Source: Phycisphaerae bacterium (lineage in GTDB: Bacteria > Planctomycetota > Phycisphaerae > UBA1845). From it: a stretch of 64,000 bases of DNA. The translations under genes and the position numbers were made by a program. The notes beneath the pieces are model-generated. The model made no database searches. It was given only the letters and a program-made list of their open reading frames with translations, and had not been told where the DNA came from. Shown here piece after piece: positions 15,540 to 49,301 of this stretch (position 1 is its first letter; each line of letters opens with the position of its first letter). The stretch covers positions 992,001 to 1,056,000 of the forward strand of contig CAXXGO010000006.1 of NCBI GenBank assembly GCA_963666835.2, read 5' to 3'.

Positions 15540-16690
15540 GGGTACCATCCCGTCGCGGGCGCCCCATCCATCCCGACGTTTGCCAGGCTGGAACAACCAC
15601 ACCGCCTCACCGCCGGGACGGGTGGGGGACGGATTGCGTAGGGCACGGTCGAGGTACGAGACCTGCCGCGAAGGCGCGCGAAGCGTGAAGACCTTGTAGG
15701 GCACGGTCGAGGAACGAGACCTGCCGCAAAGGCGCGCGAAGCGTGAAGACCTTGTAGGGCACGGTCGAGGTACGATACCTGCCGCAAGAACGTACGCCGT
15801 TCGAGCCGAACGCGTTTGTGCGACCCACTTCGGGGTTGGTGTGGAAGGGGGCTTTGTGCCCCAGGGTGGCACTAAAGCGGCTACGCCGCTTCGTTTACCC
15901 TGGGCTTTGTTGTTCAACGCCTTCGGCGTAGGTTCGGCAGGCACGCGGCGCGCGAAGATCACGGCCGGCCGCGCCATCTCTCCAGCAGCGGGGGATTCAA
16001 TGTGTCGCGATGGTGGCATTGCCGGGTGCCCCATCCATCCCGGCGTTTGCCGCGCTGAAGCAGCCGTATTGCCCCACCGCCGGGACGGGTGGGGGACGGA
16101 TTGCGTAGGGCACGGTCGAGGAACGATACCTGCCGCAAGAACGCACGCCGTTCGAACCAAACGCGTTTGTGCAACCCACTTCGGGGTTGGTGTGGAAGGG
16201 GGCTTTGTGCCCCAGGGTGGCACTTCGCGGCTACGCCGCTTCGTTTACCCTGGGCTTTGTTGTTCAACGCCTTCGGCGTAGGTTCGGCAGGCACGCGGCG
16301 CGCGAAGATCACGGCCGGCCGCGCCATCTCTCCAGCAGCGGGGGATTCAATGTGTCGCGATGGTGGCATTGCCGGGTGCCCCATCCATCCCGGCGTTTGC
16401 CAGGCTGGAACAGCCACACCGCCTCACCGCCGGCATGAGTGGGGGACGGAATGCGTAGGGCACGGTCGAGGTACGAGACCTGCCGCGAAGGCGCGCGAAG
16501 CGTGAAGACCTTGTAGGGCACGGTCGAGGTACGAGACCTGCCGCAAGAACTTAAACAAGGACTCGTCATCCGCAATCGATTCCCCACCCTTCGCGTGGGA
16601 AGTAGTCCGTATGCCGTAACTGCACCTAACTACGGGGCGTTCTTGTCTACTGAAAGACCGTACAGGGCGGAGGATAGGGCACCCTCGCCG
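15540..16690. repeat. Mosaic REP cluster 1
   Basis: GTAGGGCACGGTCGAGG(T/A)ACGA(G/T)ACCTGCCGC at 15638, 15696, 15754, 16105, 16455 and 16513 (58-bp and ~350-bp periods), plus two other hairpin modules. Confidence 0.9.
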
Positions 16691-41941: not shown

Positions 41942-42110
41942 TGTTCGGCCAGACCACCGCACGATGCCTGTAACCGTCCAAACCATTGCGTAACGGCTAT
42001 AACCGTCGAGACCATCGCACGACGCCCGTGATCCGACGCCACTAGCCACATATCCGCGTCCGGGACGCCTGTAACCGTCCAAAATGCCCCATGACGCCCG
42101 TAACCGTCCG
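41942..42110. repeat. Degenerate 29-bp tandem repeat
   Basis: TAACCGTC core at 41971, 42000, 42072 and 42101, with a variant at 42029. Confidence 0.65.
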
Positions 42111-42317
42111 GCTCCGGTCGCGCCGGCAGATTATCGGATTAAGACTTGTTTTTCGGACCCGGTTAAGCTAGGCTATCGGACTCGGGAGTGCGCGTATCAG
42201 GGGTACGGGCCGCGCACTTCAACGATGGAGAAAAGGGAGCGGAAGCCCACACCTCTGAATACGGGAAATAACTGTGCGCCGGCGGCCAGGGCGGGTCGTT
42301 CGGGAAAGGAGTGGAAG

Positions 42318-44195
42318 ATGGAGTGGCGTCATTTGTGGGGCGGATTCGTTGCGGTGATTGTGCTCGTGTTCTTGGGCCTTACGGCCAATCCGGCGACCTC
42401 GGCCCCTCTGCCGGATACGGAAGCCTGCTGCGTTGGCGACGGAGATGTGTGCTTCAACATGCCGCCGGATGCGTGCATTGACGAAGGCGGCGGGACCCCG
42501 CAGGGCCCGGGTACGTACTGCCTCGGGGACGGCAACGGCAACGGGATTGACGACGCCTGCGAGGGCGGTGCGGAGACGCAGGCCTGCTGCCTGCCGGACG
42601 GTAGTTGTGTTGACGTCGACCCGATGGAGTGCGTGGAGAGCCTTGGCGGCGCGGCGCAGGGAACTGAAACCGTTTGCACCGAGCCGGCCGCCTGCTGCCT
42701 GCCGGACGACAGTTGTGCCAACCTGGACCCGCTCTGTTGTCTTGAGCAGGGCGGCGACTCTGTGGCGGGGTGGTGCTCCACTCCCGAAGCCTGTTGCATG
42801 CCGGACGGCACTTGTGTCGAGCTGGATCCCGCCTGCTGCACCGCCGAGGGCGGTACTCCGCAAGGCGCCGGTACGACCTGCACCGCTGTCGAGGCTTGTT
42901 GCCTGCCGGACGGAACTTGTGCCGCGTTGGACCCGCTATGTTGCACTGCCGAGGGCGGTACTCCGCAGGGTGCGGGCTCTGTTTGCACCGCCGTCGAGGC
43001 TTGCTGCCTTTCGGATGGCGCTTGTGCCGATCTCGACCCACTGTGTTGCATCGCGGAGGGTGGTACTCCCCAGGGGCCCGGAACGGCATGTTCCGCCGTT
43101 GATGCCTGTTGCCTTCCTGATGGGACGTGCATTATGGCAGACCCCGCCTGTTGTGCGGATCTCGGCGGTGTGACCCAAGCCGGCCAGGCCTGCACGGCCG
43201 TCGAAGCTTGCTGCCTTTCGGACGGAACCTGTGCCGAAATGGACCCGCTCTGCTGTGCGGCCGAGGGTGGCGTTCCTCAGGGTATCGGCTCGGTATGCAC
43301 GGCCGCGGAAGCCTGCTGCCTGCCGGACGATACCTGTGCTGAGCTTGACCCGCTTTGCTGCGCCAGCCAGGGCGGAACTCCTCAAGGTGCCGGTACGGTA
43401 TGTACGGCCGTGGAGGCCTGCTGCCTGCCGGATAACACCTGTGCCGATCTTGATCCGCTCTGCTGTGCCGACTTGGGGGGTGTTTCCGAAGGTGCCGGTA
43501 CGCAATGTACTGATGTGGCGCCATGCTGCCTGGCGGACGGAACGTGCCTGATGGTCGATCCTTTGTGTTGTGTTGAACTCGGGGGTACGGTGCAGGCCGG
43601 CGGTGGTGCTTGCACGGCTGAAGAAGGTTGCTGTTTTGCCGACGGAACGTGCGCTACGCTTGATCCGCTCTGCTGTATCGACCAGGGCGGGACCCCGCAG
43701 GGTGCCGGTACGGTTTGCACGGCCGTTGAGGGCTGCTGCTTCGGCGACGGCACCTGTACCGATCTCGACCCGCTCTGTTGTCTTGAGCAGGGCGGAACAC
43801 CGCAAGGCGCCGGCACGGTCTGTACGGAAGAGCAGGCATGCTGCGACCCGGCCAGCGGCGTGTGCGTAATGCTCGACCCGCTGTGCTGTGCGAACCAGGG
43901 CGGCTCGCCGCAGGGCGCCGGCAGCTATTGCAGTGCCTATCAGGCGTGCTGCTATCCGGACGATACCTGTCGGAATATGGACCCGGCGTGCTGTGTGGAT
44001 CAGGGCGGAGTGCCCGGCGGATCCGGTTCGGCGTGCGAGGGTGACTGGAACGGCGACGGGGCGGACGACTTCTGCCGGTCGCCTTGGGAAGACGAGATTC
44101 CCACGACGTCGACGTGGGGGTTGATTACCCTGGCTCTGCTGCTGCTCGTTGCGGGTAAGGTGTACTTCGGTCGGCGGACTTCGCCCGTCGCGTAA
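42318..44195 (+). CDS. Cys-rich repeat surface protein with IPTL-CTERM sorting signal
   Basis: Signal peptide; about 15 units of ~35 aa (EACCLPDGTCxxLDPLCCxxEGGTPQGAGTVCTAV); tail IPTTSTWGLITLALLLLVAGKVYFGRR; AAGGAG RBS. Confidence 0.9.
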   Translation: MEWRHLWGGFVAVIVLVFLGLTANPATSAPLPDTEACCVGDGDVCFNMPPDACIDEGGGTPQGPGTYCLGDGNGNGIDDACEGGAETQACCLPDGSCVDVDPMECVESLGGAAQGTETVCTEPAACCLPDDSCANLDPLCCLEQGGDSVAGWCSTPEACCMPDGTCVELDPACCTAEGGTPQGAGTTCTAVEACCLPDGTCAALDPLCCTAEGGTPQGAGSVCTAVEACCLSDGACADLDPLCCIAEGGTPQGPGTACSAVDACCLPDGTCIMADPACCADLGGVTQAGQACTAVEACCLSDGTCAEMDPLCCAAEGGVPQGIGSVCTAAEACCLPDDTCAELDPLCCASQGGTPQGAGTVCTAVEACCLPDNTCADLDPLCCADLGGVSEGAGTQCTDVAPCCLADGTCLMVDPLCCVELGGTVQAGGGACTAEEGCCFADGTCATLDPLCCIDQGGTPQGAGTVCTAVEGCCFGDGTCTDLDPLCCLEQGGTPQGAGTVCTEEQACCDPASGVCVMLDPLCCANQGGSPQGAGSYCSAYQACCYPDDTCRNMDPACCVDQGGVPGGSGSACEGDWNGDGADDFCRSPWEDEIPTTSTWGLITLALLLLVAGKVYFGRRTSPVA

Positions 44196-44258: not shown

Positions 44259-44482
44259 TATGGCGGATCCAGGAAAGCGTGTTGGTTCTTCGCGCTGTTG
44301 TGTCATGGTTCTGTCATTGAGAGGTCGGGCGCGCCCCGTTGGGGTCGAAGAGACGCAACGTCGGTGTACCCAGGGTAGCCGCTGCGCAGCAACCCTGGGC
44401 TATAGGACGTAACGCCTACCTTCCTGACATATGTCCACCCGGGTACCTTGGTAACGGACTTCGGGACTTGGGAGGACTACGC

Positions 44483-45334
44483 ATGGGGCTGCGGAACAAG
44501 AAGAAGGAGAGGCTTGAGCGTCTTGACTCGAAGACACTGGATGCCAAGTTTTTGCACGAAATCAAGCACGGACTCCATTGTTCGCCATTCGAGGCCGAGG
44601 CGGTTCTCGATGTGGTCAAGGAAGTTTACTTCCCGTACCTCGATGAACACGCCGGCAAGGCCCCACCTGGCAAGATTGGCTTGGTCGTCGTCGACGCCGA
44701 CGAGCCTGCCGGGAAACCCGTCTGCGAATGCCAGAAGCAGAACGTGTGCCTGACAATCCACCGAGGTGCAGAGGATGATCGACTTCTGGAGGAGGAGGGG
44801 CCGGTCGGCTTTCGACAAGCCCGCATCCCACCGCTTTGCCAAGAAGCCCTGAGTCAAGGTGGGCTGCTCACGCGCGAAGATCTGGCCTACCGGATGTTCT
44901 TTGTTACGCCACGAACCATTACGCGCGATTTGAACGCTCTCCGGAGTGCGTATCCCGGGGTGCTTATTCCTCTGCGAGGAATCGTACACGATCTTGGTCC
45001 CGTGTTGACTCATCGCAGCCAAATCGTGCGTTTGGCTCTGGAGGGAAAGACGACCTCACAGATCTGCACCATGCTTCGCCATTCACCGGCGGCTGTAGCG
45101 AACTACGTCTCGACATTCACCCGTTGTGCGCAGTTGGCAAAGAAAGGTATGCAGGTCGGGCAAATCGCCTTCCTTCTGCGGAGAGGCAAGCGGTTGGTAC
45201 AACAGTACCTTGATCTCCTCGACGAATGCGCGGTCGACAAGAACATGGGCTATCACCTGGAAGAACTGATGCGCCTGGGTTGTTGTGGCGGGGGGAAAAA
45301 GGGACACGGTGAAGAGGGAAGATCCGATGGGTAA
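44483..45334 (+). CDS. DUF1670-like protein, copy A (283 aa)
   Basis: GGAGG RBS at 44471; LCQEALSQGGLLTREDLA...PLRGIVHDLGPVLTH...HSPAAVANY. Family recognised from memory and needs an HMM check. Confidence 0.8.
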   Translation: MGLRNKKKERLERLDSKTLDAKFLHEIKHGLHCSPFEAEAVLDVVKEVYFPYLDEHAGKAPPGKIGLVVVDADEPAGKPVCECQKQNVCLTIHRGAEDDRLLEEEGPVGFRQARIPPLCQEALSQGGLLTREDLAYRMFFVTPRTITRDLNALRSAYPGVLIPLRGIVHDLGPVLTHRSQIVRLALEGKTTSQICTMLRHSPAAVANYVSTFTRCAQLAKKGMQVGQIAFLLRRGKRLVQQYLDLLDECAVDKNMGYHLEELMRLGCCGGGKKGHGEEGRSDG

Positions 45335-46100
45335 GCCGCGAGACACCAACAGCAGAAGATACAGTCCCCTGCAGGCGAAAACGCTGAGAAACGTGTTGGC
45401 TCACCGCATCGAAACGGAGTTTCCACGCATAGGCGGCCCACGGATTCGCAACCTGTGCGCAGAGATGATCCTTGAGGTCATCGGTGCCCACGTTCTCCCG
45501 AAGGAGCATATCCAACATGGTCAGATACTCTGGATGGCGATCAGCAGCGCAGATCCCCCGAGTCAGCGTCGACGGATTGAGGATACCGATCTGCTTCCGG
45601 TGGTCTTGGACGTGAGTACCTTCGAGGATATCGAGATGCGTTTGCAGAAGAAGGGACGTGGAGAGTTGCTCTTACAAAAGAGCTTGAGGTTATGCCGACA
45701 GGCGTACGAACAAGGGGGCGTTCTGTCCAACTCTGATCTCTCGGAGTTGTTAGCAGTCAATGCGTCGGACGTCTCGCGATTGTTGGCGGCGTACGAACGC
45801 GAGACCGGTCAGATCGTCCCACGTCGCGCTACTGTCCACGATGTCGGCACAGGGCTTACGCACAAACGGATCATCTGTTTCAAACATTACGCAGAAGGCA
45901 AAGCGGCTAACGAAGTGGCTCGGGAAACGTACCACAGCCTTGAGGCTGTGGATCGTTACCTGGGCCAGTACGATCGCGTCCGCCACTGCCATCTTCAGGG
46001 GCTGACGGCAAAGGAGACAGCCCATGCTTTAGGTTGCAGCATCTTCCTGGTTCAGGAGTACCTGGAGATCGATCATGAGTTGGAGGGCCAGCATGCTTGA
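45327..46100 (+). CDS. DUF1670-like protein, copy B (257 aa)
   Basis: Overlaps ORF A by 8 nt; LCRQAYEQGGVLSNSDLS...PRRATVHDVGTGLTH...HSLEAVDRY. Confidence 0.8.
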   Translation: MGKPRDTNSRRYSPLQAKTLRNVLAHRIETEFPRIGGPRIRNLCAEMILEVIGAHVLPKEHIQHGQILWMAISSADPPSQRRRIEDTDLLPVVLDVSTFEDIEMRLQKKGRGELLLQKSLRLCRQAYEQGGVLSNSDLSELLAVNASDVSRLLAAYERETGQIVPRRATVHDVGTGLTHKRIICFKHYAEGKAANEVARETYHSLEAVDRYLGQYDRVRHCHLQGLTAKETAHALGCSIFLVQEYLEIDHELEGQHA

Positions 46101-46309
46101 CTCGATGGCACAGCACGTCAGACTTGTGTGTGCTGGTCGAGAGGACAGGGCTCTGCTGAGGAGCACCCCGAGCGCTCGTACCAGTGCCGGGACAGGCGCG
46201 GGAGTCTGCATGCACGGCGGGCTCTCGCTCTCCCTGGCCTGTTCTGGCTCCCAAGCGACAAACCTTGGGGGTCTGGGGGCAAAGCCCCCGGTGATCGCCA
46301 CACGGTCGC
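46101..46309 (+). ncRNA. Candidate structured ncRNA or cis-acting right end of the DUF1670 element
   Basis: Consecutive stems: CTCGA/TCGAG with CAGCAC/GTGCTG; AGGACAGG/CCTGTTCT; CCCAAG/CTTGGG; GGGGGC/GCCCCC; GTGATCG/CGGTCGC. Transcription cannot be shown from sequence. Confidence 0.4.
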
Positions 46310-46559
46310 GGTGGACATATGTCACTATCTTCGGCGTATGTTGGGATCGCGGCTCATACTAATGCCCCCGGGCGGTATTGAGTTCTCAGGTGCCTGTCTT
46401 TTTGGGCCGTTTCCGACGATGAATCGCGGGAAGATGTAGGCGGGCAGGTGTAGTCCGGCCGAAGCCATGCGGTCTTCATCTTGACACACGTGGGTTGCGG
46501 GTCTACGGTCCATCGCGCGGAGACCGGACGAACGAGGCCGCGGACCTGCCCCGGGCAAC

Positions 46560-49301
46560 ATGGCAAAGACGCTCTATCTCATTGACGGGCACGCTCAGAT
46601 CTACCGGGCGTATTACGCGCCGTTCCGCGAGCTGAACAGTCCGACGGGCGAGCCGACTCGCGCAACGTACGTATTCTGCCAGATGCTTCTGAACCTGATC
46701 CGCGATCGTCGGCCGGATTACCTTGCTATGGTGCTGGATCCGCCGCCGGACGAAGAACGAGGCGTCTTTAGGTACGAGATCGACAACCGCTACAAAGCCA
46801 ATCGTGACCCCGGTCCGGAGGATCTCTACGTTCAAGCCCGCCGCATCGTCTCGATCGTTACCGCCTTGGGGATTCCTGTTCACTGTGTGCCCGGCTTCGA
46901 GGCGGACGACCTGCTGGCCACGATCGGGCATCGAATGCGGGACGAGGATGTCGACGTATGCCTGGTAAGCCGCGACAAGGATCTCGAGCAATTGCTGACC
47001 GACCGCCTGCGGCTGTATGACCCGCAGAAGGACGAGGTGATCGACCCGAGGGTGCTTTTGGAGAAGAAGGGCTACTCCCCCGAGCAGGCGGTCGAGGTGC
47101 AGACGCTGGCGGGCGACTCGGCGGACAATATCCCCGGCGTGCCGGGGGTGGGGATCAAGACGGCCGCGAAGCTGGTCAGGAAGTACGGCTCGGCCCAGGC
47201 GGTGCTGGAGCATGCCGCCGAGCTTACCCCGAAGATGCGCGAGAACGTGGCGGCGTTCGCCGAGCAGTTGCCGGTCACTCGTGAATTGGTGACTTTGCGG
47301 AAGGACGTGCCGCTGGACTTTCGCCTTGATGACTGCCGGGCCGACGATGTCGACTTCTCCGCCGTTCGGCCGATCTTCTCGGAGCTGGGTTTTCGCCGGC
47401 TTCTCGATACGCTGGACGGTTTCAAGCCTGCCGCTTCGCCCGTAGATGACAACTCTGCGTCACTAAAACACGCGGGCGAGCCGGAGATTCACGTTGAGTA
47501 TCACCTTGTCGATAGCATCGAGGCGCTCGACGAATTCGTAGCGAAGCTCCGGGCGGACACGCAAGGTAAGGCGTTCGCCCTGGATACTGAGACCACCGGC
47601 TTGAATCCGGTGGCCGCGAAGTTGGTCGGGCTCTCGTTTTCATGGAAGGCGGGGGAAGCGTATTACCTTCCGGTGCGGGCGTCGGTCGGGGCGGTGCTGC
47701 CTGAAGCGGTGGTGGTCGAGAAGCTCAAGCCAATCCTCGAAGACCCCACAGTCGGAAAAGTGGGGCAGAACATCAAATACGATCTCGTCGTGTTGCGCCA
47801 GGTCGGCATCGAGGTGGCGGGGGTCGCGTTTGACACGATGATTGCCAGCTTCCTGCTCGATCCGCATCGGTCTTCGCATTCGATGGACGCGCTGGTTCGG
47901 AACCTGCTCGGACACGAGATGATCCCGATCTCGGATTTGATCGGTAAGGGCAAGAACCAGATTACTATGGACCAGATCGACACGGCCCGCACTGGTGAAT
48001 ACGCCGCGGAGGACGCGGATTTCACCTGGCGGCTCAAGGAGCTCTTCGAGCCTCAGATAACCGGCAGCCCCGTCGAGCGTCTGTTCCATGACACGGAGAT
48101 GCCTCTCGTTGAAGTCCTGGCCTCGATGGAGCACAACGGTATTGCCTTGGATGAGGCGTTGCTCGGGCGCCTTAGTTTCACAATCGCGCAGCGGTTGAGC
48201 GAGCTGACCGCGAGGGTCCATCAGGCGGCCGGGCATTCGTTCAACATCGATTCGCCCAAGCAGCTTGCCGGGGTGCTATTCGACGAGCAGGGGCTGGCCT
48301 CGGTCAAGAAGACCAAGACCGGCAGGAGCACGGACGCCGAGACCCTCAACACGCTGGCGCGGCAGACAGATAACGCGATCCCGCAACTTGTGCTCGAGTA
48401 TCGGGAGCTGGCCAAGCTTAAGAACACCTATGTGGATACGCTGCCGAAGATGATCTGCCGGCGTACCGGACGGCTCCACGCCAGCTTCAACCAGATCGGC
48501 GCGATCACCGGGCGGCTCTCCTCCAGCGATCCGAACTTACAGAATATCCCGATTCGAACTGAGACCGGTCGGCAGATTCGGGCCGCGGTAGTGGCGGGTG
48601 AGCCTGACAATGTGTTGCTGGCGGCCGACTATTCGCAGATCGAGCTGCGGCTCCTGGCCCACTTCTGCCGGGATACCACTCTGCTCGAGGCCTTCCAGAG
48701 CGGGCAGGACATCCATCGAGTCGTCGCGGCCCAGGTCAACGGCGTGTCGGTGGACGAGGTCACCACCGCTCAGCGCAGCGCGGCCAAGGCCGTCAACTTC
48801 GGCATTGTTTACGGGCAATCCGCGTTCGGGCTGGCCAAGGCCCTGGATATTCCGGTAGGCGAAGCCCAGATGTTCATCGATACGTATTTCCTGCGTTATC
48901 CCGGAATCCGACTGTTCATTGATGACTGTATCGCGCGCACGAAGGCCAACGGCTACGCCGAGACGATTCTGGGCCGGCGGCGTCAGGTGCCCGAGCTGCG
49001 CTCCCGCAACCGCCAGCAAGTCGGTCTCGGTGAGCGGATCGCGGTTAATACGGTGGTACAGGGTTCCGCGGCCGATTTGATCAAGCGGGCCATGATCGAT
49101 ATCCACCGCGCGCTGGCGAAGGACGATCAGGTAGTCCGCATGCTGATCCAGGTCCACGACGAGCTGGTCTTCGAGGTCCCCGGCGCGCTGGTTGAGCCGA
49201 CGGCCGCGATGGTTCGAGAGAAGATGGAAAGCGCCATGTCTTTGAACGTGCCCCTGGTGGCTGATGTGGCTTGGGGTCGTACCTGGGCGGAAGCGAAGTA
49301 G
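46560..49301 (+). CDS. polA: DNA polymerase I
   Basis: LIDGH...YRAYYA 5'-3' exonuclease; ALDTETTG 3'-5' exonuclease; TGRLSSSDPNLQNIP, ADYSQIELR, AKAVNFGIVYG, QVHDEL. Confidence 0.98.
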   Translation: MAKTLYLIDGHAQIYRAYYAPFRELNSPTGEPTRATYVFCQMLLNLIRDRRPDYLAMVLDPPPDEERGVFRYEIDNRYKANRDPGPEDLYVQARRIVSIVTALGIPVHCVPGFEADDLLATIGHRMRDEDVDVCLVSRDKDLEQLLTDRLRLYDPQKDEVIDPRVLLEKKGYSPEQAVEVQTLAGDSADNIPGVPGVGIKTAAKLVRKYGSAQAVLEHAAELTPKMRENVAAFAEQLPVTRELVTLRKDVPLDFRLDDCRADDVDFSAVRPIFSELGFRRLLDTLDGFKPAASPVDDNSASLKHAGEPEIHVEYHLVDSIEALDEFVAKLRADTQGKAFALDTETTGLNPVAAKLVGLSFSWKAGEAYYLPVRASVGAVLPEAVVVEKLKPILEDPTVGKVGQNIKYDLVVLRQVGIEVAGVAFDTMIASFLLDPHRSSHSMDALVRNLLGHEMIPISDLIGKGKNQITMDQIDTARTGEYAAEDADFTWRLKELFEPQITGSPVERLFHDTEMPLVEVLASMEHNGIALDEALLGRLSFTIAQRLSELTARVHQAAGHSFNIDSPKQLAGVLFDEQGLASVKKTKTGRSTDAETLNTLARQTDNAIPQLVLEYRELAKLKNTYVDTLPKMICRRTGRLHASFNQIGAITGRLSSSDPNLQNIPIRTETGRQIRAAVVAGEPDNVLLAADYSQIELRLLAHFCRDTTLLEAFQSGQDIHRVVAAQVNGVSVDEVTTAQRSAAKAVNFGIVYGQSAFGLAKALDIPVGEAQMFIDTYFLRYPGIRLFIDDCIARTKANGYAETILGRRRQVPELRSRNRQQVGLGERIAVNTVVQGSAADLIKRAMIDIHRALAKDDQVVRMLIQVHDELVFEVPGALVEPTAAMVREKMESAMSLNVPLVADVAWGRTWAEAK

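Follow-up and report, generated by a model that had tools for sequence, protein, structure and literature searches.

The locus described here raises a question in three parts: whether a two-gene stretch lodged in a small hairpin is a mobile element, what exactly it recognises, and which molecule inserts it. Insertion sequences (ISs) are classed by a few transposase chemistries, namely DDE, DEDD, HUH, serine and tyrosine. The locus lies in a 64,000-nucleotide stretch of a Phycisphaerae genome (GenBank assembly GCA_963666835.2, contig CAXXGO010000006.1, positions 992,001 to 1,056,000), hereafter the window, to which unprefixed coordinates refer; its features are collected in Table 1. Upstream, a gene for a 703-aa cysteine-rich repeat protein with a weak IPTL-CTERM match (42084-44195) ends just before the occupied repeat; downstream, an intact DNA polymerase I gene (46560-49301) starts 230 bp beyond the element.

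Table 1. Coordinates of the element, its target hairpin and the empty repeats in the window
Feature	Position	Strand	Remarks
Empty REP, long subtype, duplication half 1	15860..15930	+	DNA fold z -4.0
Empty REP, duplication half 2	16211..16280	+	DNA fold z -3.3
Large hairpin of the host REP	44369..44401	+	CCCAGGGT ... ACCCTGGGCT; inverted pair I7
Target hairpin, 5' arm	44411..44416	+	C44416 is the last stem base, common to both junctions
Left terminal extension, T + 7 nt	44417..44424	+	Outside the inverted repeat; kept in relatives
Left subterminal inverted repeat, 15 bp	44425..44439	+	Contains the 10-bp palindrome GACATATGTC at 44426-44435
orfA, DUF1670 paralogue A, 283 aa	44483..45334	+	Pfam PF07900, E 3e-37; third-codon-position bias
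orfB, DUF1670 paralogue B, 257 aa	45327..46100	+	Pfam PF07900, E 2e-49; model pLDDT 90
Sigma70-like promoter upstream of the RNA module	46097..46124	+	-35 box overlaps the orfB stop; conserved, alignment A6
Three-hairpin structured RNA-like module	46132..46302	+	Covariation
Right subterminal inverted repeat, 15 bp	46310..46324	+	Palindrome GACATATGTC at 46314-46323
Right terminal extension, 4 nt	46325..46328	+	
Common base, loop and 3' arm of the target hairpin	46329..46338	+	

Copies of the element and a natural empty site

The element spans 44418-46328 (1911 bp), and BLAST detects six full copies in the genome, which differ from one another at 0-4 positions. All six sit at the same hairpin position in a single orientation, with differing outer flanks. 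The insertion point is in each case the stem-loop boundary of an ACGCC-N3-GGCGT hairpin belonging to a family of REP repeats; one copy has a TAC loop and one an altered stem base. The repeat is a REP, that is, an extragenic multicopy palindrome flanking a Y1 gene in inverted orientation, because inverted copies lie at or around the Y1/RAYT genes at C1:801499 and C1:288162 (two of the six Y1 matches examined). As an intergenic REP, the insertion site is plausibly neutral. The census of occupied and empty repeats suggested in an earlier note on this DNA gives six occupied and, under a loose pattern, 62 empty REP copies genome-wide, while the exact 15-mer occurs 30 times. A random insertion would hit one of the roughly 69 sites of this kind with a probability of about 6e-6.

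Contigs from four public runs were compared with the region, and one joint was seen. In run X3, which comes from a related strain, a 4905-nt contig runs directly from 44415 to 46329 and leaves out 1913 nt; two letters at the joint can be assigned to either side. The contig is a natural empty allele of the very site at 44416. The element is a real, recently active and recently spread insertion sequence that is specific for a hairpin.

The coordinates in the earlier note are correct: the dinucleotide CT lies at 44416-44417 and 46329-46330, and the empty 15-mers lie at 15916-15930 and 16266-16280. The two empty repeats in the window, which it used as an internal control, do carry intact hairpins but are not independent, being the halves of one tandem duplication of about 350 bp. 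Their 9-nt spacer agrees with that of the occupied site in length but not in sequence, and their large hairpin belongs to a different REP subtype; both subtypes are occupied by element copies in the genome.

Relatives and their distribution

Related elements were found at nine loci in MAGs of several phyla and in 473 confirmed metagenome stretches, the best 80 of which were used. At protein identities of 50-78%, relatives in several phyla still have both genes between ends of this type. Among kin such elements are sparse (6 of 101 genomes, that of the present element included), and no relatives appeared in the plasmids, phages and viral contigs searched. For the distant DUF1670 pairs L240, L030 and L031 the ends could not be delimited. 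No circle junction, in which the two ends would abut as in the circular intermediate of IS1111/IS110 elements, was present in the contigs of four runs (contigs drop rare forms), in the related loci or in viral contigs. L082, considered as such a junction, is a collapsed contig that spans two REPs.

Junctions, overlap and the family-wide target

The junction set comprises 46 left and 57 right ends, with both ends present in 32 loci, some of which are near-duplicates or lie on short metagenome contigs that may mix the flanks of different copies. At the first junction base the two sides agree in 32 of 32 loci (26 C, 5 T and 1 A), at the second in only 24, so that the overlap is 1 nt and not CT; a family-wide CT core was rejected on the same count. 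The same 1-nt result came from the long-flank loci L001 and L085 and from L011, which has an 8-pair stem. At the second junction position, 18 of the 57 right ends carry G, A or C. Left ends begin with T in 40 of 46 cases, and T44417 is most likely part of the element. The earlier note held that the internal control fixes the boundaries to the base; at the site itself it does not, and the 32 related loci were needed to establish the 1-nt overlap. In every two-ended locus listed, the common base is followed by element sequence at the left junction and by target sequence at the right, a pattern that fits either exchange at a single crossover point or a stagger of 1 nt. Replacement of the common base by the element was also considered and is unneeded, since empty REPs with a mismatched closing pair are frequent in G506 (14 of 19).

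Joining the flanks rebuilds a hairpin (stem of at least 5 pairs, G-T allowed, loop of 3-4 nt opened at its 5' edge) in 25 of the 32 two-ended loci and in 27 if a closing mismatch is allowed. The remaining five are not rebuilt, and four of these fall in one clade, which may target a different kind of site. In a quick-version tree, L006, L007, L008, L091, L094, L102 and L109 form one well-supported clade whose flanks do not rebuild a GC hairpin. The target stem is GCCCC/GGGGC in most relatives and ACGCC/GGCGT in the present element. A consistent AACGC-CT-TCGGCGT target, as proposed earlier, thus stands as regards the hairpin but not as regards its core, which is one base and not CT, and the ACGCC stem is a lineage variant. 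Sequence- or structure-specific targeting of a multicopy site is nevertheless borne out by six of six copies in the genome, the empty allele in X3 and the 25 of 32 related loci with a rebuilt hairpin, rather than insertion into unrelated sequence with neither core nor hairpin. In G501, 19 element ends share one stem with loops of 3 or 4 nt, and stem covariation is seen in L046 and L011. The variable loop length favours a folded target. The element at L005:2060-2160 apparently occupies an internal hairpin within an inverted copy of its right end.

Ends of the element

The 15-bp inverted repeats are perfect and subterminal, with 7-8 nt outside them at the left end and 4 at the right, and their palindrome is near-invariant among related ends. 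In many relatives a -10-like hexamer adjoins the left palindrome, and binding there may for this reason repress the element's own promoter.

Several derivatives of the ends occur. At C6:739724-739746 a 23-bp scar within a REP fuses the left end to the right end through the 10-bp palindrome, with the genes lost; the join recurs in a contig of run X5 and is therefore not an assembly slip. At C5:242186-242230 two right ends meet head to head through one palindrome, with differing flanks. Together, the scar and the head-to-head ends suggest that the palindrome itself could be a recombination hot spot. A solitary right end remains in a REP after a deletion (C6:1881240-1881290), and in a sister-element remnant at C6:796150-796400 the RNA module is succeeded by a reversed motif that resembles a left end.

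The DUF1670 proteins

The two genes overlap, and their products are about 26% identical. Pfam and NCBIfam return only DUF1670 and helix-turn-helix (HTH) families for both ORFs. Neither ORF matches a transposase family, the DDE family included, in these two libraries, and neither matches PF00589. There is likewise no match to Y1_Tnp (PF01797), with no H-hydrophobic-H motif among the invariant columns, and no DEDD (RuvC-like) transposase in either ORF, in searches with the same Pfam library that detects the IS110 copies of the genome. In five of five pairs compared, the difference is 0.53-0.67 at third and 0.12-0.25 at second codon positions, and by this comparison both orfA and orfB are under purifying selection.

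The catalytic domain of tyrosine recombinases carries the residues R-K-H-R-H/W-Y. The DUF1670 proteins have conserved R, K, H, H and Y near the C-terminus, at a spacing that we take to be similar. Homology to tyrosine recombinases was not detected: hhalign against a profile of four such proteins from the genome gave a probability of 0.1, and they are not among the matches listed in the fold searches. In 72 diverse homologues G174, H179, H203 and Y211 are present in all 72, D172 and K180 in 71, and R167 in 63. R167, D172, H179, K180, H203 and Y211 of B form a candidate catalytic set. Y211 may also be structural rather than catalytic, since an alignment pairs it with Y245 in the second HTH (probability 95). 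In favour of the catalytic reading, the equivalent of Y245 has become H in two units of the four-unit fusions that retain Y211.

The AlphaFold model of B (pLDDT 90) comprises a helical hairpin, a beta-hairpin, a winged HTH, a conserved linker and two further HTHs. Foldseek against PDB and BFVD returned nothing at E <= 0.001, and VIA-align, run with the whole protein and with residues 1-176, gave HTH matches only (Z up to 6.3), residues 1-100 being barely covered. A likeness to the CAP domains of Topo VI A and Spo11 was set aside, as CAP matches tie with ordinary regulators. The sole match in a PDB sequence search is a designed CAP repeat; ESM Atlas gives DUF1670 clusters and then, below 0.9, unnamed HTH proteins, and no RNA holder is listed.

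The recognition helix of the winged HTH is near-invariant in A (six fully invariant positions) and variable in B, where the share of the top residue falls to 0.2-0.5 at several positions. Invariance of the A helix parallels the end palindrome, and variability of the B helix parallels the targets. The A helix is predicted to bind the element ends; a link of the B helix to the target stem is suggestive only, kinship being a confounder.

Long relatives of 504-544 aa contain two DUF1670 units, and those of 930-952 aa contain four. Such single chains are P0023, P0024, P0031 and P0045, with four units, and P0106, P0128 and P0130, with two. In all four of the four-unit fusions, D/H/H/Y is present in units 2 and 4 but not in units 1 and 3. 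Because two of four units keep these residues, a four-subunit synapse with two active centres would fit. Prediction of an A-B complex gave a score of 0.34, a level at which passes are oftener wrong than right unless the complex is likely beforehand (best control 0.00; contacts agreed to at least 72%, and partner pLDDT was 74 or more). Of the benchmark pairs, 116 of the 157 solved ones and 2 of the 215 mismatched ones reached the mark; at scores of 0.60 or less, only 18 solved pairs pass, along with both mismatched ones. The prediction gives weak support to an A-B complex.

The RNA-like module at the right end

Downstream of orfB lies an RNA-like module preceded by a sigma70-like promoter motif whose -10 box is weak in this copy and which is not among the matches of a consensus scan. 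A lost third gene, with an ATG over the orfB stop codon, was considered; the conserved letters are better read as the -35 box. Of the 52 base pairs in the module, 30 show changes on both sides, a count reached in none of 500 shuffles (the shuffle ignores relatedness) and comparing with 6-14 in slid controls. Rfam gave no match for it. A covariance model built from the module matches all six copies, one remnant and the genome's five IS110 copies, where it is in reverse orientation, and 7 of 12 other matches examined adjoin rve, Mu-C or ISL3 transposases. This covarying module of about 170 nt also travels with unrelated IS families at L214, L217, L231-L233, L236 and L238, as with the IS110 copies.

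The module was not found among the 150 candidates scored in each of G501 (19 element ends) and G506, and in nine related elements no more than 30-75 nt separate orfB from the right end. L002 and L003 have no right-end RNA and carry about 240 extra bases of other hairpin-rich sequence at the left end. Inspection by eye showed no RNA segment that varies along with the target: L008 and L040 differ in their flanks, yet their RNAs are almost identical. Because the module is common to unrelated IS families and missing from a multicopy relative, it is probably not a guide for the element, and we regard it as an accessory of many IS families.

Proposed mechanism and alternatives

The reading we put forward is an autonomous IS that lands at the stem-loop boundary of REP hairpins, with its two DUF1670 proteins as a heteromeric recombinase; as a whole, we hold it with evenly divided confidence. 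Judged from sequence, the DUF1670 pair is probably the transposase of the element. If it is, we lean slightly towards tyrosine chemistry, and a folded rather than a double-stranded target seems reasonably probable. A and B would assemble into a heteromeric, probably four-unit complex, in which the invariant winged helix of A would bind both end palindromes, the ends being joined in a circle or a copy-out intermediate. The variable winged helix of B would recognise the target stem, and Y211, aided by R167/K180, D172, H179 and H203, would nick the extruded hairpin in one strand, at its last stem base. The nicked strand would be exchanged with the joined ends, and replication would finish the insertion, as for integron integrases.

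A DUF1670 recombinase might instead read a double-stranded target made of two inverted 4-5 bp arms with a short spacer and a 1-nt stagger, perhaps by metal-dependent chemistry at D172/H179/H203. Three HTH domains per unit would suit double-stranded DNA, an arm-N5-arm pattern fits most sites, and a closing-pair mismatch is tolerated, as the empty REPs of G506 illustrate. We nevertheless consider this somewhat unlikely: in G501 the arm spacing among the sites of one element varies by one base, and Y211 is retained exactly where the His/Asp set is. It is distinctly unlikely, in our estimate, that the element is non-autonomous, with a host RAYT/Y1 nickase, an IS110 recombinase or XerC/D exchanging the strands while DUF1670 binds the ends, recruits or regulates. 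The only recognisable folds in DUF1670 are HTHs, the target REP flanks RAYT genes, and Y1 and IS110 transposase genes co-occur in five of the five other host genomes tested. RAYTs cut at CT (PMC8266576), and both junctions here fall between C and T. Family-wide, however, the second junction base departs from T in the 18 right ends noted above, the IS110 copies of the genome have unrelated ends and insertion sites, and an invariant Asp/His/His/Tyr set would be unexpected in a pure DNA-binding protein.

Targeting guided by the structured RNA, as in IS1111/IS110, where loops of the RNA match the target, appears very improbable. A conserved promoter and a covarying structure do lie downstream of orfB, the position of the seekRNA in IS1111 (PMC11187229). 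Against this stand the lack, by eye, of any segment that follows the target (L008 and L040 among the examples), the module's absence among the candidates scored in G501 and G506, and its place beside unrelated transposases elsewhere.

Comparison with known systems

IS1111 elements such as ISEc11 have subterminal inverted repeats of 11-13 bp with extensions of 7 and 3 bp (PMC11187229). The present element is alike in having subterminal inverted repeats with unequal extensions (7-8 and 4 here), a single orientation at a specific site and a non-coding region downstream of its genes. It differs in that IS1111 uses one DEDD/RuvC transposase and requires its RNA, whereas here two paralogues without such a domain are present and some members lack the RNA. 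ISPpu9, a REP-targeting IS110 element, is similar (PMC12288879), with several copies at one REP position, a very short core and an optional small RNA downstream; it has a 2-nt AG core and an IS110 transposase there, in contrast to the 1-nt overlap, inverted repeats and unrelated protein pair here.

With RAYT/TnpA-REP and IS200/IS605 HUH enzymes (PMC8266576), the element shares hairpin recognition, cuts between C and T and, as proposed here, tyrosine-linked nicking. Unlike them, it has no Y1_Tnp match and no HUH motif, its ends are inverted repeats of the double-stranded type, and the hairpin is its target, not its end. The likeness to integron integrases (PMC4792948) would lie in the proposed logic only: a folded single-stranded partner, exchange of one strand and resolution by replication. 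Unlike them, the element has no detectable tyrosine-recombinase homology and no cassette array. From DDE insertion sequences it differs in having no RNase H-like DDE domain, in its subterminal repeats and in an overlap of 1 nt instead of a duplication of several bases.

Significance

No publication naming DUF1670 or PF07900 was found in a search that left ISfinder, subscription journals and supplements outside, and a database entry may exist. The element family is described in none of the papers found, and the enzymatic role is one that we infer. DUF1670 could represent a new, HTH-module class of site-specific recombinase, a proposal for which we see the chances as balanced. It would act as an A/B heterotetramer (a single chain in some lineages) with a His-His-Asp-Tyr centre, would place a 2-kb element at the edge of a hairpin loop, and would change target by drift of one recognition helix, with no RNA guide.

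A widespread, recently active element showing none of the DDE, DEDD, HUH, serine or tyrosine chemistries would add a new enzyme class, and a function would be given to a Pfam family (DUF1670, PF07900) with at least 970 cluster representatives. With two compact genes, near-scarless insertion and natural changes of target stem, the system is directly testable and has a possible use in targeted DNA insertion. It also illustrates one more route by which mobile DNA uses REP repeats as landing sites.
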